From an uncultured Candidatus Saccharibacteria bacterium (GTDB lineage: Bacteria > Patescibacteriota > Minisyncoccia > Phycocordibacterales > PCTT01): a stretch of DNA of 64,000 bases. Below, piece by piece: positions 24,587 through 48,651 of this stretch. The first letter of the stretch is position 1, and every line of letters begins with the position of its first letter. The DNA lies in contig CAZMIM010000001.1 of the NCBI GenBank assembly GCA_964566505.1, positions 132,581 to 196,580 of the forward strand, written 5' to 3'. Under the pieces are notes generated by a model, which had not been told where the DNA came from, did not search any database, and was given only the letters and a program-made list of their open reading frames with translations. Made by a program: the position numbers and the translations under genes.

Positions 24587-25058
24587 GGCAATCACGTTTT
24601 TGTCTGATTGTACGTAATCGCCCGGAAACTCTACTATTGAATGGACCAGTTTATGGGAAGAGGTCATATGGTACGACGTCCACGGGAGCCCGGTAACCGT
24701 GCGCCATACGGGGCCGATGGTGGTTGCAATCTCGTTGCCATTCGACGGCTTTGTCGAGTGGCGCTGATAGACTATTTCATAATTGCGCAGGACAGATAGT
24801 GCTGAACCATAACCTATAGAAGTACGAGATTCGCCTGACCGAGCACCTGTGGTGGGACACCTGTACTCTTAGATAGTAAAGCCACTTACTGGACCTAAAC
24901 AACAAAGCTTTTAGACCATTTCGCCCAATACACTTAAGATGCCTTACGCCATGACTCCCTTGAAGGCCTCTGCCTGCCCTCTTTTCACTATAGTCTAGAA
25001 ATGCATGTCTAGAAAAAACCTATCGGGTTTCACTCCCGATAGGTTTTAACACCTTGCC

Positions 25059-25352
25059 TCAACCTGCGTGAGACAAGACATCGATTACTTGATAGTAGGC
25101 CCCTTCTTTCTTGAGCAGCCCATATATCTCTAATTCTCTAAGAAGGTCACGCAGAGACAATGTTCTGTCAACTTCATGAAAACCATTGGGAAGTCTCCTC
25201 AGAAATACCTCCTCAAGCTCAGATGCCGTAAACGGTGTATCTAGTGAGTAAATGGTGTCAAACAGAATCTGACGATTCTGCTCATACTTGTCTATAGCGG
25301 TCATGTGATTACCTCCACAGGTGCAGTCATTTGATTTAGGAATTCGTCCCAA
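25059..25352 (-). CDS. Small hypothetical protein, 3' partner of the HD-domain gene
   Basis: 97 aa. Start overlaps the HD gene stop by about 50 nt. No recognisable motif. Confidence 0.3.
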   Translation of the reverse strand: MGRIPKSNDCTCGGNHMTAIDKYEQNRQILFDTIYSLDTPFTASELEEVFLRRLPNGFHEVDRTLSLRDLLRELEIYGLLKKEGAYYQVIDVLSHAG

Positions 25353-28078: not shown

Positions 28079-28474
28079 GTGGACCCTAACCTATTTGTTG
28101 CGGACTGGGAGAAGATCTTCGAGGCATTGATGTTCATCATCGTGTCTTCTTTCATTGTCGAACGATTTCTGGCATTGTTGTTCGAAAGCCGATTTTGGAT
28201 TGAAAAGGTTGAATCCAAAGGATCCAGCCTCAAAGAAGTCTTGGCACTGATTGTTAGCGTAACCATCTGTGTTTACTGGAGCTTCGATGCAGTTAGCATG
28301 ATAATCCCATCTCAACCTACGACTACCCTTCTTGGAGAAATAGTCACCGGAGGTGTGATCGCAGGAGGTAGCAAAGCATCCGTGAAGCTCTTCCATGATC
28401 TTCTGAAGATTCAAAGCTCCGCTAGGGCTGCAAAGAAGAAGGGCGACCAACCAACCAACGAAAGTCAGTCATGA
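28079..28474 (+). CDS. Hypothetical membrane protein
   Basis: 131 aa, about three hydrophobic segments. Stop overlaps the nuclease gene start. Confidence 0.35.
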   Translation: MDPNLFVADWEKIFEALMFIIVSSFIVERFLALLFESRFWIEKVESKGSSLKEVLALIVSVTICVYWSFDAVSMIIPSQPTTTLLGEIVTGGVIAGGSKASVKLFHDLLKIQSSARAAKKKGDQPTNESQS

Positions 28475-29547
28475 TTGGATCAAATCCTTTCTCGAATTGC
28501 AGGTTTTGGCTTCTCTTGTTCGTTCTCTTTGGCTCTGCGAGTACCACAGTGAGCTCGGAAATCACCCTGGACTATCTGGAAGTGAGAAGAACCACTTCGA
28601 TTCGTGGAGAACCTGTCGCAGGAGGAATAGAAATTGCCCAGGTGGAGAAAGGGGAATTCTTGATTCTGCTAGACAATGGAGACCAGATGGGTGGTTTCTA
28701 CCACGTTAGAACACGTTCAAACGCTGATGGGTGGATTTACCGGTCTATGGTCAGACGGTACAGAGGCGAAATGCCTTCTCCCAATATCACCGGTGACGAC
28801 GCATTTGACGACCCAACGTATGCACTCCCACAAACCCTCCAGGAGGCAGCAGCCGCCCATTTGAGACACGGCAAACCACAGGGAACTTACGAGCGAGTTA
28901 GAGCGGGATACGCCTATGCTGTTGATCCTCGTCTAAGAATCCCGATTTGGGTGCAGTATGAACTCAAAGCATCAGACCTTGGCCGAGAAACGCAGCGATC
29001 AAATGACTTCAGGCAAGACACCTCTCTTCCAGATATCGCTCGAGCCGCGCTAGAGGATTATGCCGGAAGCGGGTTCGATCGGGGGCACATGGCACCTGCT
29101 GGAGACATGGTCAGAGACAATAATGTCATGTCGGAGAGTTTCTACTTGTCAAACATGGCACCGCAAGTTGGAATAGGTTTCAACAGGCACATATGGCGAG
29201 ACTTTGAATCAAGCGTACGCTCATGGACAGAATTGATCGGAACAGTCACCATCATCACCGGCCCGGTATTTATGGCGTCGAATGGAATGGTTGAGTACGA
29301 AGTCATAGGTGATCGAAATGTCGCAGTGCCAACGCACTTCTTTAAAATTGTCGTCGACTTTAGCGACCCCACCCAACCACAGTCAGTCGCGATTCTGATG
29401 CCCAACGAATCCCTTACTGGTCACACTTACCTGGAATTTGTGACCACAATCGATGTTATCGAAGATCTCACGGGACTTGATTTTTTTAACCGGATTCCGC
29501 TGCCTGTTCAAGAGCAATTTGAAAGCATAGCCAATCCAAGTTTGTAG
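28471..29547 (+). CDS. Secreted DNA/RNA non-specific endonuclease (NucA/EndoG family) with N-terminal SH3-like domain
   Basis: 358 aa. Signal peptide FWLLLFVLFGSAST. Catalytic DRGHMAPAGD and SNMAPQ (metal-binding Asn) as in Serratia nuclease. Confidence 0.65.
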   Translation: MIGSNPFSNCRFWLLLFVLFGSASTTVSSEITLDYLEVRRTTSIRGEPVAGGIEIAQVEKGEFLILLDNGDQMGGFYHVRTRSNADGWIYRSMVRRYRGEMPSPNITGDDAFDDPTYALPQTLQEAAAAHLRHGKPQGTYERVRAGYAYAVDPRLRIPIWVQYELKASDLGRETQRSNDFRQDTSLPDIARAALEDYAGSGFDRGHMAPAGDMVRDNNVMSESFYLSNMAPQVGIGFNRHIWRDFESSVRSWTELIGTVTIITGPVFMASNGMVEYEVIGDRNVAVPTHFFKIVVDFSDPTQPQSVAILMPNESLTGHTYLEFVTTIDVIEDLTGLDFFNRIPLPVQEQFESIANPSL

Positions 29548-31455: not shown

Positions 31456-32859
31456 CTACCACTTGTTGCGAATGTAGCGCATCAAATTGAAGAGGTGAGT
31501 ATAATTTTGCTCGCCTGGCTTGTGCTTCAGAGAAGCCCCAGAGTTGTGAGAGGCCTCCTCATTTACAATCTGAGCGATGATTCTACTCGATTCATGGTCG
31601 GGTAGCATCTGATAAACAGACGGAATGAGGAAATCATGCCGAAAGGGCTGAATACGCTTGTTCTTTGGCTTGCTCTTCAGAACTTTCGCTCCATGGATAT
31701 ATCTGCTTCTTAGCTCCTTTGGCCAAAAATCAGGATCCTCATCATCGTAGTCATCGTCTAGGATCGCTTTCTGGGAATAAATATTCCGCGCCGTTTTGAG
31801 GTTGTTTCCAATCTTGTGTCCAAAAAGCTTGCCAGCCTTTACGCGAGAGTAGGCGATCTTCTTGATGGGAGATCCTATGAGTGATCCAAGAATCTCGTCG
31901 ACACTGTCATTGGCTGAAATGATGTTTGCCAGCCAAACACCCTGTGAGGACAAACTGTACTCAGGGGAATTGATCAAGGACAATACAGAGAAACGATTGT
32001 CTGGTAAGTAGTTGGTTGTGCTTAGGTCTTTAAATGCACTCTTGGGGTCACCGTACAATCCGCTAAACCACTTTATGGCAGTGCCCAAGAATTCTGCCCA
32101 CTCCGTGTTGCCGGTGCTTCTCGCGTCTTCATATCCCGCCGTAACGAGCTTATACAATTGCTCAAAATTTATGGCATCGGGCAATGCTGCAGCTAGAGAG
32201 GGAAACACATTTGTGTTGACGGACAAGAGAGAAACGACGAACTCGAGAAGCGTACCGGTTACGTGCTCCTGATTCATGGGATTGGCAAACGGAGCTCCTT
32301 GGTTTGGGCTGTTGATAGTAATGACTGCCGACACCTTGTTTTCCTTGAACACATACCTATCCAGGAATGCCAAGTATCTCGCAACGGTACCTCCTTGAGA
32401 GTAGCCAACGAGGATATTGAAATCGGCCTCCTCGATTAGATCATAGTACCCGACTCCACGTGGGGTAGCCATGTAGCGGCCGTTCTCGATGTCAAAAATA
32501 TCGTAGTTGTTTGCCTTGTCCCACCACGAATAAAATAGCTCGTCACTTTCGTACAGGTCGTGATAATGAGCTAGAATGCCGTTCAGTATCTCTTTCCCTG
32601 ATTCGTCCAAGCCAGCCGTGTCTTGATATCGGTCCCCAATGCACTTGATCGGAAATGGCACGAAGTACTCAACCTTCGGCATGAGCTGATACTTGCTTTC
32701 TCCATCGGGATTACTCCGCGTACAGAAAGTCGGCCGGAATCGTTTTCTCACCTCTCCATCGCTAAGATGAGTAAACATATTTCTCAGTTCGCCCAGCTTC
32801 CCTGATACGAGATCAACCGAGCGGTTGATGAACCATATTTTGACAGTTTGACGGGCCAT
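31456..32859 (-). CDS. Alpha/beta-hydrolase fold protein (lipase/esterase-like)
   Basis: 467 aa. GxSxG nucleophile elbow GYSQGG. Start overlaps the stop of the upstream hydrolase gene. Confidence 0.5.
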   Translation of the reverse strand: MARQTVKIWFINRSVDLVSGKLGELRNMFTHLSDGEVRKRFRPTFCTRSNPDGESKYQLMPKVEYFVPFPIKCIGDRYQDTAGLDESGKEILNGILAHYHDLYESDELFYSWWDKANNYDIFDIENGRYMATPRGVGYYDLIEEADFNILVGYSQGGTVARYLAFLDRYVFKENKVSAVITINSPNQGAPFANPMNQEHVTGTLLEFVVSLLSVNTNVFPSLAAALPDAINFEQLYKLVTAGYEDARSTGNTEWAEFLGTAIKWFSGLYGDPKSAFKDLSTTNYLPDNRFSVLSLINSPEYSLSSQGVWLANIISANDSVDEILGSLIGSPIKKIAYSRVKAGKLFGHKIGNNLKTARNIYSQKAILDDDYDDEDPDFWPKELRSRYIHGAKVLKSKPKNKRIQPFRHDFLIPSVYQMLPDHESSRIIAQIVNEEASHNSGASLKHKPGEQNYTHLFNLMRYIRNKW

Positions 32860-34352
32860 CAGTAGTCCTTTCGATCTAGGTTCAATCGATCACGGAGAAT
32901 CTGCAAGTGATCTGCCTTCTCGCCTTCTGCAGTATTCACATCCCAGTATTTTGTGTGTTGGAATCCTTTCGGTTTGGCTCCAAGTGATACTTTGATATCA
33001 GCAACGCCTGGTCCGAATAGAGGGCCAACCGGCCCTCCAATTGGGTCCCCCTTATACAGATATCCCTCGGGAAAGTAGAGGTTGGTCCATCTCGTGGAGC
33101 CGAATACTGCAGCATGATGTGCTTTCCAAAAGCTGTCATCGTTGCCTTCGCTTCGCGATCTGTAGGAAAATCGTTCTCTCGAATCGAAGGTCTCCATCTG
33201 CGGCGGATCGGTCGGAAACCAACGCTGGTTAACTTTTTCACTGAAAGCTTCCTGGGACGCTACGACAAGCATATTTGCATGAGCCAGCGGCGAACCCAAG
33301 GTTATGAAGTCAGAAATTTTCCAAGGAGGATCCGACTTGGAAAGTTGCTCACGATACCGATGCTTAGCTGCCAAGTATGCGCTGGAAGCGGCTTGAAGCT
33401 CATCTTTCAGACCTTTCTGTTCAAAGTCGTCAGAGGAAAGCGTCTCCGTCGGTGCTGCCTGGTTTCTCTGCCTCTCCCGAATCCTCTCTAGCCCTTCCGC
33501 TGCTTTCTCTACTTCCCTCAGAACACTCAGCGCCTCTGAACCCTGATTGTCCCTACTCTCAAGATTGGGAAACCTATAATTCGCCCAGAGGGCGCTCAGA
33601 GCATCGTAGGCGACCAAACTACCTAAACTATGGCCCACCAATACCACTCGATCGTAATCACCACTATCATGAACTGACCTAAGCAGATCGATAGCTCGCT
33701 TCCTTATATGATTGCGAATAGAAACATTGCCTGCACTGTTGTGCAAATATCTTGCAGCATCTCCTATGTATTTTACAAAGGCACCCTTCCAGATGAATAG
33801 CATCGCTGCAATAAAGAGGAATATGTTGGGTAGATACTGGACGATAGAACTTCCAAACCCATTGTATCCCTCTAGCCAGTCGAAAAGGCCAAAATCAGGC
33901 AGAAACCAGCTAGCGAGTGAAAGTCCCAGGATGGGCAAAAGTGCGATCACTGCCCACCATATTTTTCGTACCGACCCCGTCAGAGTGGTTGGCGCCCTGC
34001 CAAGTAGTGGAAGCAGCCATCCAATGACATGAGTGAGCGTATTGCCACCCATCATATCTTGCCAGTAGACCTCGTAAAAATCAGTTCTCACAGTTCCACC
34101 TTCACCACCTTTAATCACGGCTGAGTTGGTAGTAATTCGTCTCATTTCGTGAGAGTCATACTTAGTATCTGGCATGATCCAGTACTTTGGCCGCGCCCCC
34201 TCTTGTGCAATTCGAATATTTCCGTTTGTGCTCCATACGGCTTCAACGAATCCCATGATTGACTCCATTGGCTTTTGGTCACCAATGCCATGGATCAATA
34301 CTACCGCTTGCTTTTTTTTCATCGGAACGCCTCCTATCGTTCTTCGAGCCAA
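32859..34352 (-). CDS. Alpha/beta-hydrolase fold protein (lipase-like) with internal TM segments
   Basis: 497 aa. VVLIHGIGDQ (HG oxyanion-hole motif) and VLVGHSLGSLVA (GHSLGS nucleophile elbow). Two hydrophobic helices between them. Confidence 0.5.
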   Translation of the reverse strand: MARRTIGGVPMKKKQAVVLIHGIGDQKPMESIMGFVEAVWSTNGNIRIAQEGARPKYWIMPDTKYDSHEMRRITTNSAVIKGGEGGTVRTDFYEVYWQDMMGGNTLTHVIGWLLPLLGRAPTTLTGSVRKIWWAVIALLPILGLSLASWFLPDFGLFDWLEGYNGFGSSIVQYLPNIFLFIAAMLFIWKGAFVKYIGDAARYLHNSAGNVSIRNHIRKRAIDLLRSVHDSGDYDRVVLVGHSLGSLVAYDALSALWANYRFPNLESRDNQGSEALSVLREVEKAAEGLERIRERQRNQAAPTETLSSDDFEQKGLKDELQAASSAYLAAKHRYREQLSKSDPPWKISDFITLGSPLAHANMLVVASQEAFSEKVNQRWFPTDPPQMETFDSRERFSYRSRSEGNDDSFWKAHHAAVFGSTRWTNLYFPEGYLYKGDPIGGPVGPLFGPGVADIKVSLGAKPKGFQHTKYWDVNTAEGEKADHLQILRDRLNLDRKDY

Positions 34353-34847: not shown

Positions 34848-35960
34848 ATGCGTGTGAGTGCTCGGCGCAGACCCACCCATCTTGAGGCAAGAGTATCGCT
34901 CAACCGCAACCATGAATCTTTTCATTCATACACCATGACCAAAGAAGACGGTATACTTCGTGACGCTTTTAGGATTATTGGTGATACTATAAACATCGCT
35001 GGTTCCGAAGGCGTACTGATTGATCGCGATACGCTAGCAAAATATCTGCTGGGCTCTGAACTTCGAGAGCGCATTCTGGCCAGATCGGAATATAACTTCC
35101 ATGGAAAAGACAGCCCATTCGAAACAGCTGCCAACTATGTGGACTGGTTCAGTTCGTATGTGACACAAAGATCCGAAATAACGAAGAGTTGGAATAGAAG
35201 TATCTACCGGGCACGTGTGATCACTCAATCAGAGGCTACTGGGAAGGAACGCGAAATTTGGGCGTACTCAGTACGTTCGCCGACCACAAGAGGGCGACTG
35301 ATCTTCAGAGTTGGTGAAGGAGGTATAATTCGAGTTGGCCTAATCGGCAAAGACGGTAGATGGACAAATAGTGATGGACTCGAACAACTGCCTTGCGGAC
35401 TTTATACGGTTAATTTTGGACGGTGGGCGGCCACTCTGAAAGAGTTGGAGGATAGGATCAACGACCCGAATTGCTCTGAAGACGATTTGCAATCCTTCTT
35501 TGAAGAGAATCGTGAATTGCTTCAGGATACGAGGTATAAATCCGTAATTCCCGAAGCGGTCATTCATAGAGAGAGCGGGGAGGTTACTGCACCTTGGGAA
35601 GCCGACTTCATCCTCTCTCCTGCTGATCAAGAGGCATTCTGTAAAATCATTGAGTTGAAGCGCCCGCAATTTGGCACCATAAAAAAAGAACGACGAGGCC
35701 ACGCTAAGTTTTATCGTGAATTGCATGAGGCAATTTCACAACTCAGAGACTACCACGAGGCTTTCGATTCGATCAGCACGCGCGAAAAGTTTCAAGATCG
35801 ATATGGTGTAGAGGTTTTTAAGCCAGACCTTCAACTTATTATTGGTCGCCGATGGACATCAAAGGAACACCAAGCCATGCTAGTACTGCAACGAAGGCAG
35901 CATGTTGAAATACGAAGTTGGGACGGAGAGCTGGATCGACTTCGGAGGCTTTTTACCTAG
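34848..35960 (+). CDS. sduA: Shedu-like (DUF4263 nuclease domain) defense protein
   Basis: 370 aa. C-terminal half ...FFEENRELL...EADFILSPADQEAFCKIIELKRPQ...ISQLRDYHEAF...PDLQLIIGR...VEIRSWDGELDRL parallels the DUF4263 core (D...E-x-K, LIIGR block). Confidence 0.5.
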   Translation: MRVSARRRPTHLEARVSLNRNHESFHSYTMTKEDGILRDAFRIIGDTINIAGSEGVLIDRDTLAKYLLGSELRERILARSEYNFHGKDSPFETAANYVDWFSSYVTQRSEITKSWNRSIYRARVITQSEATGKEREIWAYSVRSPTTRGRLIFRVGEGGIIRVGLIGKDGRWTNSDGLEQLPCGLYTVNFGRWAATLKELEDRINDPNCSEDDLQSFFEENRELLQDTRYKSVIPEAVIHRESGEVTAPWEADFILSPADQEAFCKIIELKRPQFGTIKKERRGHAKFYRELHEAISQLRDYHEAFDSISTREKFQDRYGVEVFKPDLQLIIGRRWTSKEHQAMLVLQRRQHVEIRSWDGELDRLRRLFT

Positions 35961-36234
35961 CGACTGGATTGAATCGGCAAGATTTGCCTTAGAGGAAAAC
36001 CATGACTTGCGCAGAAGGGGTTTCCCCCAACGGCCACCGAACATTAGCGGAGCTTGATCCCGATAACCTAGTTCGTTTAATACTGAAATTTGCAGCCTCT
36101 TGTTTAAGGGCTAGAAAATATAGTCTTACTTCTGGCAAGGTGACGTTGGGGACTTCAAGGATGTCTGTCGAGTAGAGCTGTCACGCATGTCTTCGACAAT
36201 GGAGGTTCGTACTAATTCTAGTCCTGCGCACAAG

Positions 36235-36290
36235 AAAACAGCCTGCCCAAATTTTGTATTACAAAACTTGGGCAGGCTGTTTTTATTTTT
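36235..36290. terminator. Bidirectional rho-independent terminator at the composition boundary
   Basis: Perfect 13-bp stem acagcctgcccaa / ttgggcaggctgt with A-run before and T-run after, between convergent genes. Confidence 0.6.
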
Positions 36291-36831
36291 CAAATAATTT
36301 ATTTTTTCTTGAGATTGCTATAAACGAAACAATTATCACAACCATTAAATACACAAACAAAATCTCCAAAGAGCTATATGGCAATGAGCGGAGCGCGCCA
36401 AGAATAATTGTTGCAAGCCAAGACACGATAGACACGACACCACTAATCACTAGAAATGATGTGTTTTGCATAAACTCTTTTGAGCGATAGAAATATTTAC
36501 CAGACTCTTTTCGCATCTTTGGGAAATGATAAAAGTGCAAAATAATTCCGTTTATAAATATCACCGCGACAATAGCCATCTTTGCTATAAATTTTGTGGA
36601 CTCGCTAAATCCTTCTGGGTTTTGATAGAAAAGTCCAACCCCTGAAAGAACAAGAAGTACAAACCCGCTCCACACCGCCACACTACCGACATGCAAAAAT
36701 GTAAGCTCTGACTTTGTAAGCTTTTTATCTCTGATGGCTGTAAAAAACATCAAGTCACTCATAATTGCACCACCTGCACCCAGTGCAGTACCAATCAGAT
36801 GCACTATGAGAAATAGTGTGCTTGGTTCCAT
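36283..36831 (-). CDS. Hypothetical membrane protein
   Basis: 182 aa, five or six TM helices, AT-rich codon usage. Confidence 0.4.
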   Translation of the reverse strand: MEPSTLFLIVHLIGTALGAGGAIMSDLMFFTAIRDKKLTKSELTFLHVGSVAVWSGFVLLVLSGVGLFYQNPEGFSESTKFIAKMAIVAVIFINGIILHFYHFPKMRKESGKYFYRSKEFMQNTSFLVISGVVSIVSWLATIILGALRSLPYSSLEILFVYLMVVIIVSFIAISRKNKLFEK

Positions 36832-36833
36832 AA

Positions 36834-38003
36834 TTAAATTGATTTATCTACATTACTAATACGTTCGCCAAAAATATTCATCAAAACAGGGCTCGCTGTT
36901 ACCGTAACAATACTCAAGACAATCATCGCACTAATGAGAGTCTCGTCTACAAAACCAAAAGATAGTGCAGAGAGTGCTACCGCAAGTGTTGTAGAGAGCT
37001 GCGGCATAGATGAAATACCAAATAGAAGCGACTGGTCTTTGGTAAACCCAACTAGCCGAGCTCCAAAGAAACCGCTGGCTATCTTTGAAATAATAGACCC
37101 AAGCACAATAGCAACTATCATCCATAATGCTCCTTGTGCAGAAACAGCATCTACAATATTTGCCTGTGCTCCAGCGATAACAAAAAATGTTGGTATGAAA
37201 ATACTATAACTGACTGTGCGAATTTTCTCTTTGAGCTTATCACTCTGTATAGAATCTGAAAGCACTAGTCCCGCAAAGAATCCCGCGATAATAGGGTGAA
37301 GCCCTAAAAACTCAAATACAATAACTGTGCCTAAAATAATAATAAGAATTGAACGAAACTCTTGCTGGAAAAATGTATCTTCGCTTCGTGAGCGCTTTGT
37401 AAAGAAAGAGCTTGCGCGTGGAAGAAGTAGACGGAACACAAAAAGAGTTAGAAGTGTGAGTGGATAGAAAATCACGAGCGGTAGTGATGTTACTGGGTCT
37501 ACATTTTGAAGTACTACTGAAAGCAAAAGTAGGCTCGCGATATCTTGAAGTACAGTGGTCATAATCACTGACTGACCAAGGCGAGTTCTCATGAGGCCAT
37601 ACTTTTCAAGAGATGGAATAATCACCGCAACAGAAGATGAGATGAAAATAATACCCACCAAAAGTGATGAGATATATCCGTAACCAAAGTACTGAGCAAT
37701 ACCATATCCAATCACAAAAGGCACCGCCCCGTTTATAAATGATAGCCACCCCAGCTTGATACGAAAATTATCAAAACTCGAAAGCTTGGTCTCGAGACCC
37801 GCCATAAACATCAAGAATATCAGACCAATCTGACCCAAGAACTCTACGGTCGGCGTAATAGAGAGTACATCAAAACCATCAGGACCTATGGCTATTCCCG
37901 CCAAAATAAGAGCCACCACCCATGGAATATGGATACGCTTGAATGCGATTGAGAAAAATACTCCAGCAAAAATAATAATGAAAAACGGAAAGAGATCTGT
38001 CAT
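36834..38003 (-). CDS. Cation:proton antiporter (Na+/H+ exchanger, CPA family)
   Basis: 389 aa, about 11 TM helices, typical CPA1/2 layout. Confidence 0.6.
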   Translation of the reverse strand: MTDLFPFFIIIFAGVFFSIAFKRIHIPWVVALILAGIAIGPDGFDVLSITPTVEFLGQIGLIFLMFMAGLETKLSSFDNFRIKLGWLSFINGAVPFVIGYGIAQYFGYGYISSLLVGIIFISSSVAVIIPSLEKYGLMRTRLGQSVIMTTVLQDIASLLLLSVVLQNVDPVTSLPLVIFYPLTLLTLFVFRLLLPRASSFFTKRSRSEDTFFQQEFRSILIIILGTVIVFEFLGLHPIIAGFFAGLVLSDSIQSDKLKEKIRTVSYSIFIPTFFVIAGAQANIVDAVSAQGALWMIVAIVLGSIISKIASGFFGARLVGFTKDQSLLFGISSMPQLSTTLAVALSALSFGFVDETLISAMIVLSIVTVTASPVLMNIFGERISNVDKSI

Positions 38004-38042
38004 ATATTGCCTCTATTATAATACATACAGCACTCTTTAAGT

Positions 38043-38990
38043 GTGGTATATTCCCCACATATGAAAAAACATAAACTCATTGCAATAGTTGGAGCAACAG
38101 CCACAGGTAAAAGTGGTCTTGGTATAGAGCTTTCAAAAAAATATAGCGGTGAAGTTGTTTCAGCTGATTCAAGACAAGTTTTTCGTGGGCTCGATATCGG
38201 CTCAGGAAAAGTTACAAAAAAAGAGATGGATGGAGTACCCCACCACATGCTTGATGTGGTAGAACCAGAAGAAGAATATAGTGTGTCGCTATTTAAGATA
38301 GATGCAGAGAATAAAATAGAAGAGATTGTAAAACGCTCAAATGTGCCATTTATTGTGGGTGGAACCGGGCAATATGTAGAAGCAATAGTTTCTGGCATGG
38401 AATACCCAGAGGTGCCACCAAATGAGGAGCTTCGAACAGAGCTTGAGAAAAAAGATACTGAAGAGCTGTTTTCTATTTTAAAAAAGCTAGACCCCAAAAG
38501 AGCAGAGAGTATAGACCCTCAAAATAAACGAAGGCTCGTAAGAGCTATTGAGATAGCAAAACACCTTGGATCTGTACCAAAAATAAAAAAGAATCCTCAA
38601 TATGAAGTACTACAAATAGGACTAGAGCTTCCTGATGATGAGCTACGAGAGAAGATAGAGAAAAGGCTACATGAACGCATTGATGAGGGAATGATAGAAG
38701 AAGTTGAAAAACTTATTGAAGACGAAGTTTCTAAAGAGTGGCTTAAAAACCTTGGCCTTGAATATAGATATATAACAGAGCATCTTGAAGGAGAGTTTTC
38801 AAAAGAAGAAATGATTGAAATACTTTCTGCAAAAATTTGGCAATTTTCACGAAGGCAAATGAGATGGTTTAAGCGTGATGAAAATATTCACTGGTTCCAC
38901 CCAACACAAGCAAAAGAAATTGACTCTTTGGTAGCTGATTTTCTTTCATCGTTTGGCAAGACCAAGTCTTGCCATTTGACTCTTTTATAA
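38043..38990 (+). CDS. miaA: tRNA dimethylallyltransferase
   Basis: LIAIVGATATGKSGLGIELSKKYSGEVVSADSRQVFRGLDIGSGK, the MiaA P-loop and signature. Confidence 0.8.
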   Translation: MVYSPHMKKHKLIAIVGATATGKSGLGIELSKKYSGEVVSADSRQVFRGLDIGSGKVTKKEMDGVPHHMLDVVEPEEEYSVSLFKIDAENKIEEIVKRSNVPFIVGGTGQYVEAIVSGMEYPEVPPNEELRTELEKKDTEELFSILKKLDPKRAESIDPQNKRRLVRAIEIAKHLGSVPKIKKNPQYEVLQIGLELPDDELREKIEKRLHERIDEGMIEEVEKLIEDEVSKEWLKNLGLEYRYITEHLEGEFSKEEMIEILSAKIWQFSRRQMRWFKRDENIHWFHPTQAKEIDSLVADFLSSFGKTKSCHLTLL

Positions 38991-39036
38991 AGAGCGAGTA
39001 TTCTCGAATACGGAATAAACACCAAGGAGGTGTCTT

Positions 39037-39180
39037 ATGTGGGAGAACCTTTTAACAATCCTTCTCATATTCCTGCCTGTTGCAATACTTATTGTGTTGT
39101 TTCTGAGAGGGGTCGGGAGGATTTCATCAACTCGCTGTTATGACGAACACGGCGATCAAATTCTGAAGGAGGAACAATGA
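39037..39180 (+). CDS. Small single-TM peptide (47 aa)
   Basis: MWENLLTILLIFLPVAILIVLFLRGVGRISSTRCYDEHGDQILKEEQ. Perfect SD aaggagg 7 nt upstream. Stop overlaps the next ATG (ATGA). Confidence 0.35.
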   Translation: MWENLLTILLIFLPVAILIVLFLRGVGRISSTRCYDEHGDQILKEEQ

Positions 39181-39338
39181 ACAGGGAGACTGGATGGATG
39201 ATTGCTTTTGGAGCAATCATTACGGCAAGTGTCGTTGTGCTCGTATGGGGCGGACAACTACGTGTTGCAGCCTCACAGCTCAGTGAGCGTTTTCAGAGGC
39301 ACGATGAACGAGATGAGGATGATGTCACCGAAGACTGA
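39177..39338 (+). CDS. Small single-TM peptide (53 aa)
   Basis: MNRETGWMIAFGAIITASVVVLVWGGQLRVAASQLSERFQRHDERDEDDVTED. SD aaggagg upstream. Followed by a terminator. Confidence 0.35.
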   Translation: MNRETGWMIAFGAIITASVVVLVWGGQLRVAASQLSERFQRHDERDEDDVTED

Positions 39339-39359
39339 ATCCTATCAAACTCAAAGAGT

Positions 39360-39388
39360 GGGAGAACCTGGTTCTCCCACTCTTTTTC
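39360..39388 (+). terminator. Rho-independent terminator
   Basis: gggagaac-ctg-gttctccc followed by ctcttttt. Confidence 0.55.
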
Positions 39389-39403
39389 AATATTTAATTT
39401 TTG

Positions 39404-39475
39404 CGGGCGTGGAGGGACTCGAACCCCCAGCACGACTTTTGGAGAGTCGCCGCTTACCAATTAACGAACACGCCC
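39404..39475 (-). tRNA. trnW: tRNA-Trp (anticodon CCA)
   Basis: Reverse complement gggcgtg...cgact-ctCCAaa-agtcg...gggggttcgagtccctc-cacgccc-g folds as a cloverleaf. CCA 3' end not encoded. Confidence 0.8.
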
Positions 39476-40135
39476 AGTGTTCTCCATGTAGACTCTTGCT
39501 AGTGTAACGAGTTGTCGCTGTAAGTCAACATCGTGATACCTAACTGAAATACATCCTTCATAGTCTTCTTTTTTCCTAGTTTGAGTATTTCTTTTTTGAT
39601 ATGTCTTTAAAAATTGATTTTTTGACATACCCGTAACATTTGACCAAAACTGTTTTTGTTTCTCTTCATTATGATAAGAATGTAAATGCATTAATACTCT
39701 AAATTTAGATTCATCAATGTCATAAACACTCCTTAAAAGTGTGAGAAATGTTTTTATCAATTCTGGGTCAGAATTAGTAAAATCAACTTTTCCATCTAAA
39801 TCAGATGCGCCCTCACACCAATATATTAAAGAACACAATACTTTCTTTGAGGTTTTTGTTTCAGATAATGAATCTACAATCTTTTGAGAGTTCTTTTTTA
39901 TGTTCGCTTTTTTATGATTTGTGTTTAGCTTTTTGATTTTATAGGCCTTTTCACGGCCTTTTCTTTTTTTATCTTTTATTTTTTGCTGTGCATTTTCAGA
40001 TAATGTAATATGGCTAACCCATGAAGAAACAGAACCTTTTGAAACGCCAAGCTTCTTGTATATTTCATTTATTGAGTACCCCTGACGACGCAAACTTATT
40101 GCCTGCGCTTTCTCTTTTAACTTTGCTTTAGACAT
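39461..40135 (-). CDS. Hypothetical basic DNA-binding protein (N-terminal HTH)
   Basis: 224 aa. LRRQGYSINEIYKKLGVSKGSVSSWV HTH. Lys-rich. 3' end overlaps tRNA-Trp by about 15 nt. Confidence 0.4.
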   Translation of the reverse strand: MSKAKLKEKAQAISLRRQGYSINEIYKKLGVSKGSVSSWVSHITLSENAQQKIKDKKRKGREKAYKIKKLNTNHKKANIKKNSQKIVDSLSETKTSKKVLCSLIYWCEGASDLDGKVDFTNSDPELIKTFLTLLRSVYDIDESKFRVLMHLHSYHNEEKQKQFWSNVTGMSKNQFLKTYQKRNTQTRKKEDYEGCISVRYHDVDLQRQLVTLARVYMENTGRVR

Positions 40136-40216
40136 AGTAAGTTATATAACCTATCTTGATAGTTTATATAATATCATATATCACAAATAAAAATTTCCTC
40201 ATATACGAGGAAATTT

Positions 40217-40402
40217 TTATTTCTTCTTTTTCTTTTTAGAAAGCTTTTTCACTTCCTTAAACACCACATGCTTTTTAAGCTTGGGGCTGTATTTTTTGAT
40301 TTCGATTTTTTGATCTGCCTTGTCGCCCTTCTTGTTTCGTCGAGTATAGTATGTCTCTTTCGTGTCTGGGTTTTGCAGAATTACTAATGCTTTTTGTGCC
40401 AT
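40217..40402 (-). CDS. rpmG: 50S ribosomal protein L33 (bL33)
   Basis: MAQKALVILQNPDTKETYYTRRNKKGDKADQKIEIKKYSPKLKKHVVFKEVKK matches the bL33 pattern (Y.T.KNK....LELKKYCP..KH..H.E.K). Track start is 10 codons upstream. Confidence 0.7.
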   Translation of the reverse strand: MAQKALVILQNPDTKETYYTRRNKKGDKADQKIEIKKYSPKLKKHVVFKEVKKLSKKKKKK

Positions 40403-40486
40403 AGTGTTTCGTATATTACTAAAAAACCCCAAAAAAGCAAGAAACCCGCGATTCCGAAGAACCGCGGGTTTGAAAGCCGTTAATAT

Positions 40487-41098
40487 TCACGCAACCGAAA
40501 TTGCAGGAACATTAAAACGATTTCTGAAGAGCAGAGCCACAACAGCTGTAGTACCTATAAACGCTCTCACGATATAGATATAAGCTTCGAGATCTGCATC
40601 TGCGAATGCGGGGTAAATGGCAACCAGGTTGGCTACCCAGATTGAAAGCCAGAGAATGAGAGAATCATCATGCTGTCGTTTGTGTAAGCTTTTTACAATT
40701 GGCCAGTAGCCAACAAGTGCCAAAGCTTGTAGTAACACATACGACACGAAAGGATCATCAGTGAAGAGCCAAAAGATGACAATGCATCCGGCTCCTATCA
40801 TGGTTCTTTTCTGTGTTGTGTTAAAAGAAACAGCAAGCGTTCCTTTTACCAACAACTTAAGGATGATTACTCCTGTAAGGCTCCATACGCTGATTACAGC
40901 AGATAGGAGACCAACATTCCCAGTGTAACTCCATTCAGGAGTCTGCGTGTACATAAACCACGCAAGACCAAATGAAGCTGAGAGTATAATGAACGCACCA
41001 GGAGGTGGCCCAAATACTCCGCGTACAATCTGCACCGCATAGTAGAGAGTGCCTGACAACATCACAAATGCTGTCAGATAGACCATTGAAAGGTACAT
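40487..41098 (-). CDS. Hypothetical membrane protein (about six TM)
   Basis: 203 aa, hydrophobic throughout. Confidence 0.4.
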   Translation of the reverse strand: MYLSMVYLTAFVMLSGTLYYAVQIVRGVFGPPPGAFIILSASFGLAWFMYTQTPEWSYTGNVGLLSAVISVWSLTGVIILKLLVKGTLAVSFNTTQKRTMIGAGCIVIFWLFTDDPFVSYVLLQALALVGYWPIVKSLHKRQHDDSLILWLSIWVANLVAIYPAFADADLEAYIYIVRAFIGTTAVVALLFRNRFNVPAISVA

Positions 41099-41239
41099 TT
41101 CGTTCCTCCAGGTGAAGTAGTGAGTATCTATATATATTATAACATAATATATTACATATTGTCAAGATATACCCAAAGGCCTCTATGCCCTCTTTTTCTT
41201 TGAGTTTTTGTGTATTTTCTAGTATAGTTTCCTGTACGC

Positions 41240-41322
41240 GCGTCGGTGGCGGAGTGGTCAATCGCATTAGACTGTAAATCTAACGGCTTATGCCTACGCA
41301 GGTTCGAATCCTGCCCGGCGCA
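41240..41322 (+). tRNA. trnY: tRNA-Tyr (anticodon GUA), long variable arm
   Basis: Acceptor gcgtcgg/ccggcgc (one G-U), anticodon arm ttaga-ctGTAaa-tctaa, variable arm cggcttatgcctacg, T-arm gcagg-ttcgaat-cctgc. Confidence 0.8.
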
Positions 41323-41330
41323 CAACAAAA

Positions 41331-41356
41331 AATCACCCCTTGGGGTGATTTTTCTT
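41331..41356. terminator. Rho-independent terminator (serves tRNA-Tyr and convergent clpB)
   Basis: aatcacccc-ttg-gggtgattttt. Confidence 0.55.
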
Positions 41357-44045
41357 ATGCCTTTACTGTTTCTTTTTTCTTCTTTGTAGCAGGTTTTTTC
41401 TTCTTCCCTGTTCCCTGCTTTTTCACTGTAAATGAAAGTTCACCTGCTTTTATTCCTACAGACACCTTTCCTCCACTCATTACACCCTTCTCTACCATCA
41501 AGTTTGCAAGTGGTGTAAGAATCTTATTCTGGATAAGACGCTTAAGTGGTCGTGCTCCATATTGTGGGTCATAACCTTTTTGAGCCAAGTATGTAAGTGC
41601 TTCTTTGCTTACTGAAACATCAATATTTTTATCAGCAAGTCTCTCTTTTACTTTATCGATTTGAATATCTACAATCTCTCGAATTGACTCTTCTGTAAGC
41701 ACATTGAAGATAACAACCTCATCAAGTCGGTTAAGAAATTCTGGTCGGAAATAATCCTTGAGTGCTTTTCCAACGCGCTCTTTTGCATCTTCGTACTCTT
41801 CTTGTGTATCAGCATTTGAAAATCCAAGACGCTCCATCTTCTCAATATGTTGTGAGCCAATGTTTGAGGTCATAACAATTATTGTGTTTTTGAAGTTTAC
41901 CTTTCGCCCCTTTGCATCTGTAAGGTGTCCTTCATCAAGAACCTGAAGAAGAATATTAAATACATCTGGGTGTGCTTTTTCAATCTCATCAAATAGAACC
42001 ACAGCGTATGGTCGGTGTCGTACTTTCTCTGTAAGGTTTCCTGCATCTTCGTATCCCACATATCCTGCTGGTGCACCAATCATCTTTGAGATTGAGTGCT
42101 TCTCCATAAACTCTGACATGTCTACTCGAATCAAGGCATCTTCATCATCAAACATAAACTCTGCAAGGGCCTTTGTAAGCTCTGTCTTTCCTACCCCTGT
42201 TGGGCCAAGGAACATAAATGAACCGATTGGTCGATTTGGATCTGAGATACCTACTCGAGAACGCTTTACAGCGTCTGATACAGCCACCACCGCGTCGTCT
42301 TGGCCTATTACTCGCTCCTTTAGCTCCTCTTCCATTCGTGCAAGCTTTTGTGTCTCTGCCTCAAGCATTCTATTTACTGGGATACCAGTCCATCTTGAAA
42401 TAACATCTGCAATATCTGTTTCTGTTACCTCTTCTCGAAGCACGCGACGCTTTCCTTGTAGCTTCTTGAGCCGTCGTGATTTTTTCTCTATTTCATTTTC
42501 AAGCTCCGGGATGTCTGCATAACGGATCTCTGCTGCACGTGAAAGGTCTGCCATTGCCTCTGCTGCATCTGCCTCAATCCGAAGAGTCTCTAGCTCTTTT
42601 TTCATTTCTTTTATTTCTGCAAGAACCTCCTTTTCGTTTTTCCATCGAAGCTCTAGCTCGCTTGTCTTCTCACGAAGCTCTCCGATTTGTTTATCAATAG
42701 CCTCTACACGCTCTCGTGCATCTGTGTTTTCCTCATCTGAAGCTTCTTTTGCAAGTGCTCGCTTCTCAATCTCAAGTCGCAAAATTGTTCGATGTGCTAT
42801 CTCAAGCTCCTCTGGCTTGTTCTCTAGTGACATTCGTAGTGATGAACATGCCTCATCCACAAGATCTACTGCCTTATCAGGAAGAAATCTGCTTGTTATG
42901 TATCGAGATGAAAGTTTTACTGCAGATATAAGAGCTTCATCGAGAATTCTTACCCCATGGAAAAGCTCATACTTCTCCTTGATACCTCGCATAATAGAAA
43001 TAGCGTCAGTTATGCTTGGCTCATTTACATACACTGGCTGGAACCGCCGAGTAAGTGCGGGGTCTTTTTCAATATGTTTTTGATATTCTTTGAGTGTTGT
43101 TGCTCCAATCGCACGAAGCTCTCCTCGAGCAAGTGCTGGCTTGAGCATGTTTGATGCGTCCATAGCACCCTCTGCTGCTCCAGCTCCTACAATCGTATGA
43201 ATCTCATCGATAAATAGAATGATGTTTCCTTTTGATTTATCAATCTCTTTCATGATTGACTTAAGGCGCTCTTCAAACTCTCCTCTGTATTTTGTGCCAG
43301 CGATAAGTGAGCCAAGATCAAGAGAAACAAGCTCTTTGCCTTTTAGTGACTCAGGCACATCACCTGTTGCCATTCTTTGAGCAAGACCCTCTACCACCGC
43401 TGTCTTTCCTACACCCGCTTCTCCAATTAGTATTGGGTTGTTTTTTGTTCTTCGTGAAAGAATCTGAATGATTCGGTTTATTTCTGTATCGCGACCAATT
43501 ACTGGGTCTAGTTTGTTCTCTTGTGCGTACTTTGTAAGGTTTCGAGTGTATTTGTTGATTGCTCGAAATGTTGGCTTTCCTGGAACATCTGTAACCTTTC
43601 CTTCTTTAAGCTCTTCAAGTACTTCCATCACGCTGTCTGATGTGACTTTGAATCGAAGTAGAAGATCCTTTGACTGATTTGGAGTCTCTGTAAGTGCAAG
43701 AAATAGGTGCTCTGTTGCAACAAACTCCTCACCAAGTCGTCCAGCGATTTGTGTTGATGCTTCAAATATTCTCGCAAGCTCTGGAGTGAGATAGATTTGG
43801 TATGAAGGAGAAAGCACTGATGATGCCTCTGGTGCTTCAAGCGACTCTACCACTGAGTCTGTCAAAAGCATTACATCCACACCAAGACGCTCTAATACGG
43901 AGTACACCACACCCTCTTCTTGCAATATCAAAGCAGCAAGCAGGTGAGCGGGCGTAACATGGTTTTGTCCGCGCTCTATTGCAAGCTCATGTGAACGTTT
44001 TACAACCTCTTTTGCTTTTGTTGTGAATTTTCCAAATGGTGGCAT
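41355..44045 (-). CDS. clpB: ATP-dependent chaperone ClpB
   Basis: 896 aa. Two AAA+ modules (GEAGVGKTA; GPTGVGKTE), Clp N domain, long middle coiled coil. Confidence 0.9.
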
Positions 44046-44147
44046 ATTTCCTTAAATATTAATGTTTTTGAGCTTATAAAAAGGCACAAAAACTATACTC
44101 ATATGTGAGTTTGTATAATACAATCAAAAAAATGTTGGGTCAATATT

Positions 44148-45011
44148 TTAATTTTCCTCTGGTTCTTCATCTGAAAGACCATCTTTGTATGCTTGTAGTG
44201 TGGATACAATCTTCCCTGCTGGTACTACAAAACTTTCAGTATCTGAGCTTACCCCTACTCCTATCATTTCACCAAATACATTGAAGTTTGGGTTTCCTGT
44301 GAGCTTGTTGCCCGTAACTGTAGTGCTGATTTGTGCAAGAACTTTTGTCTCTTCCTCATCAACAACACGGATATCATCTACGAGTGCAGATATAACTCCC
44401 ATGTGTACTGTATTTCGCCCCGCCCCTCCGATAGTAATCACGGTTTGTCCAAGCTTTAGATCTTTTTGGTCTACAAATGAAACTGGCTTGAATGTTCGCT
44501 CATCCTCTTGTGTCATCATAATCTGCAACAAGGCCAAGTGAGCATCGTCGTCTATATAAAGTACTTTAAATGGAAAACGTTCTCCTCCAATACGCGCAAT
44601 AAATTCTGTCTCTGGAGCAATAACGCCTGAATCAGCTACTGCCATGCCTGACTCTGAGATGAGTGTTGCAAGGCCAACTGTTTTATAGAGTGTCTTTTGG
44701 TCTTCTGATAGAGATGTTGTTTCTATTCGTACAAGTGATTGTGAGCCATCTGCTATAGCTTCTGTGATGAGATCCTCTTCTTTCACGACCACGGTTGTCT
44801 CTTTTGTAATTACTGAAGCTGCTTGCTGTGAGTCATCCTCAACAACTCGCTCAACTGTGCGTTCAACCACTCGGTTTACTGTGTTTGTAACTGCAGGAGG
44901 TGCTTGATCTACAAGCGTAACAGTCACAATACCTGTTGCAATAGAGGTAACAAAGCTCACCAAAAGTGTGAGCAAAACGATCTGGTGTGTAGTTAGTTTT
45001 TCCAAATCCAT
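44148..45011 (-). CDS. Hypothetical membrane-anchored protein
   Basis: 287 aa. N-terminal TM IVLLTLLVSFVTSIATGIVTVTLV. No clear catalytic motif. Confidence 0.4.
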   Translation of the reverse strand: MDLEKLTTHQIVLLTLLVSFVTSIATGIVTVTLVDQAPPAVTNTVNRVVERTVERVVEDDSQQAASVITKETTVVVKEEDLITEAIADGSQSLVRIETTSLSEDQKTLYKTVGLATLISESGMAVADSGVIAPETEFIARIGGERFPFKVLYIDDDAHLALLQIMMTQEDERTFKPVSFVDQKDLKLGQTVITIGGAGRNTVHMGVISALVDDIRVVDEEETKVLAQISTTVTGNKLTGNPNFNVFGEMIGVGVSSDTESFVVPAGKIVSTLQAYKDGLSDEEPEEN

Positions 45012-45050
45012 ATACTCTAAAGTATAGAGGATTGGGATAGGCTGAGCAAG

Positions 45051-46220
45051 CTAGCTTTTGAGTATTTTCTGTAAAACTTTTATCACCGTATCGACGTCTT
45101 TTTTAGTAGTCTCTTTCCCAAGAGAAAAGCGTACTGCGCTCGGGTTTCTGTGGTCAAATAGAGCCTGAAGTGTAGCTGAAGGGTCGTCGTTTGACTGAGT
45201 ACAAGCACTTCGAGTCGAAGTATAGATATTGTTCATATCAAGAGACACCACGATAAACTCATGGTTCTCTCCTGGGAATGTAACGCTAACATTGTGAGGG
45301 GCGCGAAGCACTTTGTCTCCATTTATACGCGCCTTTGGAAAATGGGCCTCAATCTCTTTAAAGAAATAGTCTCTTACGGCTTCTACTTTTTCTTTATATT
45401 CACCTTGTTCTGTCTGCGCTATCTCAAATGCTTTTGCAAAACCTACAATAAGAGGCATTGCTGGAGTACCGTGTCGTACATATGACTTTGTTGAAAGCCC
45501 CAAAAGAATTGGCTTTAGGGTGATGTCTTTTCGTACATAAAGAGCTCCAACACCTTTTGGCCCATACATCTTGTGTGCATCAAGTGTCATCATGTCTACT
45601 CGGAGTTTTGTAGCATCACACGGTAGATATAGTGCTGCTTGTGATGCATCTGTATGAAAAATGATATTGCTACCGTGCTCTTGGTTGTATTTTTCTATAG
45701 CACGACCTATAAGCTGTATTGGCTGTATTGTGCCGATTTCGCTGTTTACATACAAAATAGAAACCAAAAGTGTATCCTCTGAAAGAAGCTCTTTGAAATG
45801 GTCTGTATCTACAATACCGGCTTCGTTGACACGTGCTATGTCCACATGCAAATCATTTGCATTTGCATATTCTACTATTCCCCCTACTGATGGATGCTCT
45901 ATAGCACTAAGAATGATTCGCTTGCCGGAAATTTCTCCCTTCTCTTTTTGAGCTTCTAGATAGCCAACAAGTGCTTGGGTTGAGCTTTCTGTTCCATTTC
46001 CAGTAAATATAATCTCTTCAGGCCTACAATCGATAAAACGAGCACATGTGCGCTGTGCATTCTCAAAAACCTCTCGTGCTTCTACTCCCATAGAATGAAT
46101 CGCCCAAGGGTGAGCAAATACATCACTCCAGTATGGCTCCATAGCTTTTTGTACACGCGCATCAACTGGCGTGGTGGCCATGTAGTCGAGGTATATTCCT
46201 TTGTTTTTCTTATTAAGCAT
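45051..46220 (-). CDS. Cysteine desulfurase / class V aminotransferase (IscS/NifS-like)
   Basis: PLP-lysine region TLDAHKMYGPKGVGALY. Track ORF extends to 46313, but MLNKKNKGIYLDYMATTP at 46220 is the likelier start. Confidence 0.7.
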   Translation of the reverse strand: MLNKKNKGIYLDYMATTPVDARVQKAMEPYWSDVFAHPWAIHSMGVEAREVFENAQRTCARFIDCRPEEIIFTGNGTESSTQALVGYLEAQKEKGEISGKRIILSAIEHPSVGGIVEYANANDLHVDIARVNEAGIVDTDHFKELLSEDTLLVSILYVNSEIGTIQPIQLIGRAIEKYNQEHGSNIIFHTDASQAALYLPCDATKLRVDMMTLDAHKMYGPKGVGALYVRKDITLKPILLGLSTKSYVRHGTPAMPLIVGFAKAFEIAQTEQGEYKEKVEAVRDYFFKEIEAHFPKARINGDKVLRAPHNVSVTFPGENHEFIVVSLDMNNIYTSTRSACTQSNDDPSATLQALFDHRNPSAVRFSLGKETTKKDVDTVIKVLQKILKS

Positions 46221-46301
46221 GCTCTTTATTATTCTCATACTATATTGTATAGTAAGGATTACATCAACAGCACCAGGTGCTGTTTTAGCTTGATTTATAC
46301 C

Positions 46302-47804: not shown

Positions 47805-47805
47805 T

Positions 47806-48129
47806 ATGACACTCCGACAAGAAAAACTTTCATCAAGAATACGAGAGATTGCGTCGGAGTTTTTTGCGAGAGAGTCAAACCGTTCATCTCTTATTACAAT
47901 TACGCGCGCAAGTGTGTCGAAAGACATGGCAAAAGCGACAATATACATAAGTGTGTTCCCAGAAACAAATGAGGAGACTGCTCTTGATTTTTGTAGACGA
48001 AAAATGGGAGACTTTCGTGCATACGCAAAGCCACAGCTTCCACTGAAGCGAATTCCTTTCTTTTCATGCGAATTAGATATTGGAGAGAAAAACCGGCAAG
48101 CGATTGACGAAATAGAGTCTGATTCGTAG
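47806..48129 (+). CDS. rbfA: Ribosome-binding factor A
   Basis: 107 aa. RIREIASEFFARESNRSSLITITRASVSKDMAKATIYISV, typical RbfA. Immediately 3' of infB. Confidence 0.75.
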   Translation: MTLRQEKLSSRIREIASEFFARESNRSSLITITRASVSKDMAKATIYISVFPETNEETALDFCRRKMGDFRAYAKPQLPLKRIPFFSCELDIGEKNRQAIDEIESDS

Positions 48130-48152
48130 TATAATGCTTTAAAACATAATAT

Positions 48153-48224
48153 GGCTCGGTGGCGAAGTGGTAACGCTGGGGACTGCAAATCCTCCATGCG
48201 CGGGTTCGATTCCCGCCCGGGCCT
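48153..48224 (+). tRNA. trnC: tRNA-Cys (anticodon GCA)
   Basis: Acceptor ggctcgg/ccgggcc, anticodon loop ctGCAaa, T-arm cgggttcgattcccg. Confidence 0.8.
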
Positions 48225-48242
48225 CACTGTATTTTTATACAT

Positions 48243-48324: not shown

Positions 48325-48382
48325 CATTAAACAAAATGAGCTGATTTTTAATCAGAGAATATTGTTTAAGTCTGGGAGAGCT

Positions 48383-48637: not shown

Positions 48638-48651
48638 CATAAAATAGTTGG

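Follow-up and report, generated by a model that had tools for sequence, protein, structure and literature searches.

A sharp junction in a Patescibacteria contig between chromosomal DNA and at least 36 kb of foreign mobile and defence DNA: very recent island or assembly chimera

We analysed a window of 64,000 nucleotides (nt), positions 132,581 to 196,580 of contig CAZMIM010000001.1 (assembly GCA_964566505.1), assigned to an uncultured Candidatus Saccharibacteria bacterium of the Patescibacteriota. Genes for mobility, defence and export fill the left half of the window and adjoin, near 36.2 kb, a right half of Patescibacteria type. The last left-type gene encodes a predicted defence nuclease, Shedu (SduA; 34848..35960, + strand), identified by Pfam SduA_C (2e-14; the DUF4263 nuclease domain) and by the PADLOC SduA models. 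It is followed by a non-coding, left-type spacer of 273 bp (35961..36233; G+C content (GC) ~0.47), at the right end of which lies the compositional change-point (36,224 ±100), and then by a hairpin of bidirectional intrinsic-terminator type (36234..36284). The first right-type genes (36283..38497, - strand) encode a 182-amino-acid (aa) membrane protein, a Na+/H+ exchanger of the NhaP/KefB type (Pfam Na_H_Exchanger) and a 165-aa open reading frame (ORF). The hairpin begins one base past the stop codon of the first of these genes; its left foot is where the change-point lies. It has 23 pairs with one internal mismatch and a 3-nt loop, and its folding energy is -34 kcal/mol (z = -7.9 vs shuffled sequences). 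An A-run to its left and a T-run to its right make termination possible from both directions. A search of GTDB genomes and JGI metagenomes with a 45-nt hairpin pattern gave no match. Foldback misassembly driven by the hairpin was considered and ruled out, because neither side is an inverted copy of the other. At 57938-58028, two convergently ending right-half genes are separated by a 30-nt inverted repeat, which probably forms a further long terminator hairpin resembling the one at the boundary; a Logan contig of that region ends in it.

The composition of the DNA changes abruptly at the same place. GC was 0.478 to the left of 36,224 and 0.407 to the right; 1-kb windows gave the same means (0.478, standard deviation 0.029, n = 36; 0.407, standard deviation 0.019, n = 27; Mann-Whitney p = 3e-11). 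The gap of 7 points is modest, and the left half is itself uneven, with segments of 0.44 to 0.52. GC-normalised tetranucleotide profiles correlated at r 0.8-0.9 inside each half and at 0.54 between left and right, with the switch in windows centred on 35-37 kb. A strand-symmetric, third-order Markov likelihood ratio, trained on DNA away from the junction, located the change-point at 36,224, and the score dropped within ~100 bp either way. Synonymous codon usage was left-type in 31 of the 31 left-half ORFs (GC at third codon positions (GC3) 0.38-0.58) and right-type in 25 of the 27 right-half ORFs (GC3 0.23-0.43). The palindromes GATC, ACGT and AATT were rarer than expected in the right half (36225-64000; observed/expected 0.41, 0.41 and 0.59, respectively), which may reflect restriction-modification pressure in the Patescibacteria genome; the left half did not avoid them (0.87-0.94). 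Shine-Dalgarno motifs were infrequent in both halves and were therefore useless for telling them apart. The first-pass annotation of this DNA had placed an abrupt compositional boundary at 36000-36300, to be checked by sliding-window GC and tetranucleotide profiles, and had seen a perfect 13-bp-stem bidirectional terminator at the switch. The composition is indeed not uniform, and the switch at ~36,224 (±100 bp) is common to GC, tetranucleotide and codon usage and the avoidance of palindromes. The bidirectional hairpin is real as well; its stem is longer than had been described.

Two small right-half ORFs, 40487-41098 and 53914-54255 (both - strand), were the only ones in that half with left-leaning codons (GC3 0.41-0.43). 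Neither had a Pfam match; they could be small foreign genes or spurious ORFs.

The join lies in unique intergenic DNA, and the elements that flank it (Shedu gene, 182-aa ORF and terminator) are all intact. No repeat of 12 nt or longer, direct or inverted, was common to the join and the rest of the window, where about three would be expected by chance. We found no tRNA-like sequence or other RNA family, no conserved gene and no insertion sequence (IS) at the join. The window contains no N, hence no scaffold gap at this position. These features mildly favour a real junction.

The right half encodes functions of a Patescibacteria-type chromosome (38043..63963): MiaA, six tRNAs (Trp, Tyr, Cys, Leu, Lys, Leu), ClpB, a NifS-like protein, a short IF-2, pilin paralogs, GyrA, YceG and LeuRS. 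The best named homologues of the Na+/H+ exchanger came from Parcubacteria, Pacebacteria and Patescibacteria metagenome-assembled genomes (MAGs), with 55-61% identity; the nearest unnamed homologue was 70% identical. The IF-2 ORF has at most 569 aa, with the GTPase domain starting at residue 85. At their longest extents, this ORF (46095-47804, + strand) and that of the NifS-like protein (45051-46313, - strand) overlap by ~220 bp, so that translation of IF-2 probably starts farther into its ORF and yields a protein closer to 500 aa, a very short form of this factor. Six small tandem ORFs of 80-136 aa lie at 49622-51857 (- strand). Three of them match T4SS_pilin (PF18895), and a family of 80-nt repeats (63-80% identity between copies) ties together four ORFs of the cluster, two of which are PF18895 matches. 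The cluster thus appears to be an array of diverging pilin paralogs with at least three and up to six members. Judged by its gene content, the right half is most simply read as an ordinary segment of a Patescibacteria chromosome. Relatives of the right-half NhaP gene were at most 70% identical, too distant for an empty-site comparison, and the relative on a 351-kb contig (L013) had a wholly different neighbourhood.

The left half consists of mobility genes (integrase, IS3 remnants, coupling protein, MobC, relaxase) together with defence and export genes, and annotation with Pfam and PADLOC revealed no housekeeping gene in its 36 kb. Its clearest link to other organisms is an integrase module. 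A tyrosine integrase gene (8471..9739, + strand; Pfam Phage_integrase 1.7e-15, residues 214-397) lies beside the 3' 50 nt of a tRNA-Gln(CTG), from the anticodon stem to CCA (8276..8325, + strand; weak Rfam tRNA match). The 5' part of the tRNA is missing; the fragment breaks exactly where the anticodon stem starts and adjoins a dead IS3. These 50 nt are identical to the 3' end of an intact tRNA-Gln(CTG) in an ENA contig of GC 0.535 (L008, 9765-9840). There, an integrase region with ~95% DNA identity stands directly downstream of the intact tRNA, and the similarity to the window begins inside the tRNA, at the anticodon stem. The tRNA fragment is therefore the putative attachment (att) core of the adjoining integrase. 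No second att copy was present in the window at up to 3 mismatches, and the tRNA fragment and integrase region share no direct repeat with the 36-kb join. Because there is neither a second att copy nor a tRNA at the join, the visible integrase would not have made the 36.2-kb junction.

The host side of L008 has a GC of 0.57 and carries a TonB-dependent receptor of CarboxypepD_reg-Plug architecture with a weakly SusC/RagA-like N-terminus (NCBIfam match below cut-off). This domain architecture suggests an outer-membrane bacterium of the Fibrobacteres-Chlorobi-Bacteroidetes (FCB) type. An identical integrase protein was found in Logan runs SRR28004140 and SRR15635857. The contig from SRR15635857 (L007) is 100% identical over 1.4 kb; that from SRR28004140 (L006) is 99.86% identical to 8,296-12,637 and then continues into unrelated DNA. 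The cargo genes behind the integrase (9754..12637, - strand; Pfam) encode a 4HBT thioesterase, a helix-turn-helix (HTH)-cupin regulator and an orphan DctP solute-binding protein of the tripartite ATP-independent periplasmic (TRAP) type, ~52% identical to proteobacterial DctP, and the module ends at 12,637. This recombination breakpoint (4342 in L006) is just upstream of the DctP start; beyond it, L006 has HTH genes and a gene for a DUF5128 protein. The integrase was the only tested protein with an exact or ≥90% identical copy in another sequence context in other samples. GTDB genomes contained a single relative (25% identity), plasmid-borne genes were at most 25% identical, and a pattern of the tRNA-integrase junction was not found in JGI metagenomes. 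Known plasmids gave no nucleotide match for 11.3-36.25 kb.

A mobilisation backbone follows the module. A highly divergent type IV coupling protein (T4CP) of the VirD4/TraG family (15615..17612, + strand; Pfam T4SS-DNA_transf, TraG-D_C, TrwB_AAD_bind) was at most 28% identical to anything among 72,556 plasmids. Its best match among 5.8 billion proteins was 38% identical (unnamed), and the best named ones were from a Bacteroidota MAG (37%) and a Calditrichaeota MAG (35%). Downstream of it are genes for a MobC/NikA-like accessory protein and a 192-aa relaxase of the MobA/VirD2 type (17718..18676, + strand; Pfam), followed on the - strand by a RadC-like JAB protein and a DUF87/HerA-type ATPase (18767..20570; Pfam, a weak PADLOC mad8/HerA match, and tblastx). 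The contig with the closest T4CP relative (L016, GC 0.67) has the same backbone (DUF87 ATPase, MobC-like protein, relaxase, T4CP) at 33-50% aa identity, and tblastx to it supports the ATPase region. The backbone is a widespread one. The L016 relaxase has 306 aa and is ~50% identical over 147 aa to that of the window, which is probably truncated at its C-terminus. We found neither VirB4 nor other mating-pair-formation genes in the left half, where the DUF87 ATPase is weakly TraD/HerA-like; the backbone is therefore not a self-transmissible integrative and conjugative element and would be at most a mobilisable remnant. Two ORFs directly upstream of the T4CP gene (482 and 284 aa; 12959-15258, + strand) had no match in Pfam or NCBIfam. 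L016 likewise has two unannotated ORFs (396 and 249 aa) upstream of its T4CP gene, with no clear similarity to those of the window.

Confident defence matches were limited to Shedu and a Beta/PD-Lambda-2_C-like protein; other assignments were weak. The latter protein (- strand; Pfam Beta_protein 3e-61, PADLOC PD-Lambda-2_C 6e-59) forms a candidate defence pair with a 'cll'-like protein (+ strand; PADLOC cll 4e-31) at 22010..23633. An HD-domain protein (25301..27295, - strand; Pfam HD), weakly dGTPase-like in PADLOC and NCBIfam at scores far under the cut-offs, is possibly defence-related. A gene for a non-specific DNA/RNA endonuclease is at 28471..29547 (+ strand; Pfam Endonuclease_NS 7e-51), and between the latter two lies an excisionase-like HTH gene. 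A Shedu homologue with 81% identity occurs in unrelated defence-island contigs (L001-L005), with sharing limited to the gene itself.

Near the left end of the window there is a peptide-export cassette. Two precursor-peptide genes (1519..2127, - strand; ~92 and up to 104 aa) have double-glycine leaders, read from their translations as …RMIHGG/AEDV… and …ASISGG/AEDC…, and Cys/Thr/Ser-rich cores ending in GCC/GCCA. They adjoin a C39-peptidase ATP-binding cassette (ABC) exporter for bacteriocin-type maturation and export (2221..4296, - strand; Pfam Peptidase_C39, ABC_membrane, ABC_tran), of which the peptides are predicted to be substrates, of the bacteriocin type or that of ribosomally synthesized and post-translationally modified peptides. 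The window contains no modification enzyme for them; one may lie farther left. The next gene (4765..7125, - strand) encodes a duplicated FtsX/MacB-type ABC permease that had no Pfam match and was weakly DarB/ADOP-like (NCBIfam NF038008 and TIGR03434, both far under cut-offs). Two IS3 remnants are present on the - strand: an OrfB-like transposase pseudogene (7750..8150), whose rve-like motifs are broken by stops and frameshifts (six-frame translation, by eye), and an OrfA-type gene (24020..24667; Pfam HTH_Tnp_1) with no intact OrfB downstream on the ORF map. The two regions (~7750-8150 and 23640-24667) have a 17-nt repeat in common (7918, 23712). Two PGAP1-like proteins of the alpha/beta-hydrolase fold (31456..34352, - strand) had weak Pfam matches and none in PADLOC.

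The content of both halves agrees with what had been read from the sequence beforehand. The labels biosynthetic gene cluster, integrase, mobilization and defense were all correct in outline for the left half (Pfam, PADLOC, translations). The right half had been likened to the candidate phyla radiation, i.e., Patescibacteria, and its housekeeping genes, short IF-2, PF18895 paralogs and exchanger homologues bear this out. Taxonomic assignment of the halves by best matches, which had been proposed as a check, led from the exchanger to Patescibacteria MAGs and from the T4CP to Bacteroidota and Calditrichaeota MAGs. Judged by these relatives, the left half is a mosaic whose modules derive from a mobile gene pool outside the Patescibacteria, and at least one of these modules is still moving in related communities.

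Other datasets were searched for the two halves. Tested proteins of both halves all mapped to one NCBI contig of 283,212 bp. Exact-protein look-ups for Shedu, NhaP and a 57-aa spacer ORF returned no record, and no other dataset held the junction-proximal genes at ≥90% identity. The protein clusters found in the collection were single-member, except those of the integrase and MiaA. The Logan assembly of run SRR15635848 contained 100%-identical pieces of both halves, of 2.6 kb (left; L011, identical to 27,443-30,076) and 0.9 kb (right). Both pieces are short, which suggests similarly low abundance of the two halves in that run. A right-half gene was found in run SRR15635858 too. A literature search for the SRR156358xx runs gave no paper that names them.

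The first-pass annotation had proposed that the left half is either a large island in a reduced genome or one side of an assembly chimera. The boundary, the content and affiliations of the halves and the absence of junction features are established: the left half is foreign by composition, codons and its non-Patescibacteria relatives, and the right half is Patescibacteria. We lean slightly to an island over a chimera and leave a small remainder for other explanations. A genuine, very recently acquired island in a Patescibacteria chromosome has, in our estimation, about an even chance of being correct. Its purely accessory 36 kb fits an island, whereas in a fragment taken at random from another chromosome one would expect some housekeeping genes. 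The mapping of all tested proteins to one contig, and the relaxase/T4CP elements reported from about 3% of Patescibacteria genomes (PMC12102498), also count in its favour. Several points weigh against it. The left ORFs show no intermixing or amelioration of codon usage, and the left half does not share the recipient's palindrome avoidance. Left-type composition reaches base 1, with no second boundary and no return to Patescibacteria-type sequence within the window, so that 36 kb is the minimum size of the foreign block. No att site or target duplication was seen at the join. Searches of 15 billion proteins, JGI metagenomes and GTDB genomes turned up no other assembly that contains the junction. 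The near-identity of the integrase module to L006, which ends in unrelated DNA, and the intact tRNA-Gln beside a TonB-dependent receptor in L008 suggest that the module lives in other hosts now. The lack of amelioration and the 99.9-100% module identity elsewhere argue for a very recent event or an artefact, and 36 kb of pseudogene-laden DNA is unexpected in streamlined genomes, which rarely keep such sequence.

Alternatively, a Patescibacteria chromosome may have been joined artificially to the mobile/defence region of a genome or plasmid of some unrelated, FCB/Bacteroidota-like organism in that sample. Such a join could stem from misassembly, from a chimeric read or, in the case of amplified DNA, from a multiple displacement amplification chimera. 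We consider this artefact possible but somewhat doubtful. The halves are cleanly bipartite in all four compositional measures. In composition the left one comes close to element DNA of other organisms, with r = 0.83 for the L008 element and 0.71 for the part unique to L006, and the right one to a Patescibacteria relative (L013; 0.67). The integrase module is 95-100% identical in other samples and in outer-membrane-bacterium contexts, the T4CP affiliates with Bacteroidota and Calditrichaeota MAGs, and Patescibacteria-type sequence does not resume on the left. Shedu is itself mobile and present in other contexts. In one variant of this explanation, the Patescibacteria genome really has no more than a small cassette (e.g., Shedu) identical to another organism's copy, and the assembler walked through it. 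However, for a de Bruijn assembler to misjoin two genomes, these normally have to share a stretch of k or more nucleotides, and at the join there is neither a shared repeat nor a conserved gene nor an N gap by which an assembler could be misled; this argues for a real junction. Moreover, the break falls between two complete genes, where a random chimeric breakpoint would rarely fall, 36 kb without any housekeeping gene is unusual for an arbitrary genome fragment, and both halves occur at 100% identity and similarly fragmented in run SRR15635848. A further explanation, by which the left half has long resided in this Patescibacteria lineage, as a lineage-specific variable region or as a native mobile element with deviant composition, seems very improbable to us. 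In its favour, mobile elements often deviate from host composition, the T4CP has no known relative closer than 35-38% identity and hence comes from a poorly sampled lineage, and Shine-Dalgarno motifs are little used in either half. Against long residence stand the 4.3-kb module, which recurs at 99.86-100% identity on contigs from other samples and in other surroundings, the att core, which matches without difference the tRNA-Gln of a host with a GC of 0.57 and a TonB-dependent receptor, the left half's lack of the recipient's GATC, ACGT and AATT avoidance, and the absence of right-type codon usage from every left ORF.

For a recently acquired island, the following course of events may be proposed; we infer both the entry route and the presence of the two halves on one molecule in the cell. 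The join at ~36,224 would be a real DNA junction in a Patescibacteria chromosome, with at least 36 kb of foreign DNA sitting just beyond the native bidirectional terminator of the operon of the 182-aa protein and NhaP. The foreign DNA would be a decayed patchwork, and not one functional element, put together in outer-membrane (FCB/Bacteroidota-like) bacteria from a GG-leader peptide/C39 cassette, the tRNA-Gln integrase module, a mobilisable backbone and several anti-phage genes. Its arrival would have been very recent and in a single block, as no adjustment to the recipient is visible in its base composition, codons or palindromes. Since the visible integrase would not be responsible, entry may have occurred through another recombinase and an att site left of the window, or through DNA uptake, of which Patescibacteria are capable, followed by illegitimate recombination.

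The object in the window would be classed as a genomic/defence island made of a tRNA-targeting integrase module and a mobilisable, non-conjugative backbone; it is no new kind of system. It resembles tRNA-targeting islands and integrative mobilisable elements in having an integrase gene beside the 3' part of a tRNA, the same integrase being found elsewhere at an intact tRNA-Gln with variable cargo behind it. It differs from them in that its tRNA is 5'-truncated beside a dead IS3, no second att copy is present, the relaxase is seemingly shortened, and the 36.2-kb boundary has no tRNA or att sequence. The combination of relaxase, MobC and T4CP without mating-pair genes is that of mobilisable elements. 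As in defence islands, genes for Shedu, the PD-Lambda-2_C-like pair, the HD/dGTPase-like protein, the HerA-like ATPase and the non-specific nuclease are interleaved with IS and integrase genes, whereas confident defence matches in the window appear to be confined to the two proteins named above. Chimeric metagenome or single-cell contigs likewise show every compositional measure flipping at one point, with sides that resemble different organism groups; unlike such contigs, the window has a join without shared repeat, conserved gene or gap, and the break is exactly between intact genes. A survey of 3,035 Patescibacteria genomes reported 109 relaxases in 103 of them, of which 39 had a T4CP nearby, and interpreted them as mobile elements that had been acquired from various sources (PMC12102498). 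The window shares with these the closeness of relaxase and T4CP on a Patescibacteria-assigned contig; it differs in that the element lies inside a block, 36 kb long or longer, that has defence genes and relatives of the FCB type. Individual cases in that survey were not tested against misassembly, and 'misassembl' and 'chimer' do not occur in its text.

If the contig is a chimera, a public Patescibacteria-assigned contig of 283 kb carries at least 36 kb of another organism's DNA, and relaxases, defence systems and biosynthetic genes could be wrongly reported from Patescibacteria as a result. Our tentative reading, to which we give a little less than an even chance, is that a Patescibacteria cell acquired at least 36 kb of DNA for mobility, defence and peptide export very recently and in one piece, from a neighbouring outer-membrane bacterium of FCB/Bacteroidota-like type. 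Measured against the usual genome size of Patescibacteria, this is about 4%. If this reading is true, the block includes a module that circulates at 99.9-100% identity in the community and is a genomic trace of the epibiont's host or neighbour, and reduced genomes can take up large unselected foreign blocks, perhaps via their DNA-uptake machinery. The type IV secretion system of Patescibacteria themselves is usually without a relaxase (PMC12102498). A real junction would add Shedu, other defence systems and a mobilisable backbone to a Patescibacteria lineage. Partner organisms are known for a minority of Patescibacteria; here the donor-type sequences (tRNA-Gln integrase module and T4CP) would point to the partner or neighbour. 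The transfer would also be unusually large and recent for one between phyla, with a streamlined bacterium that depends on a host as its recipient.

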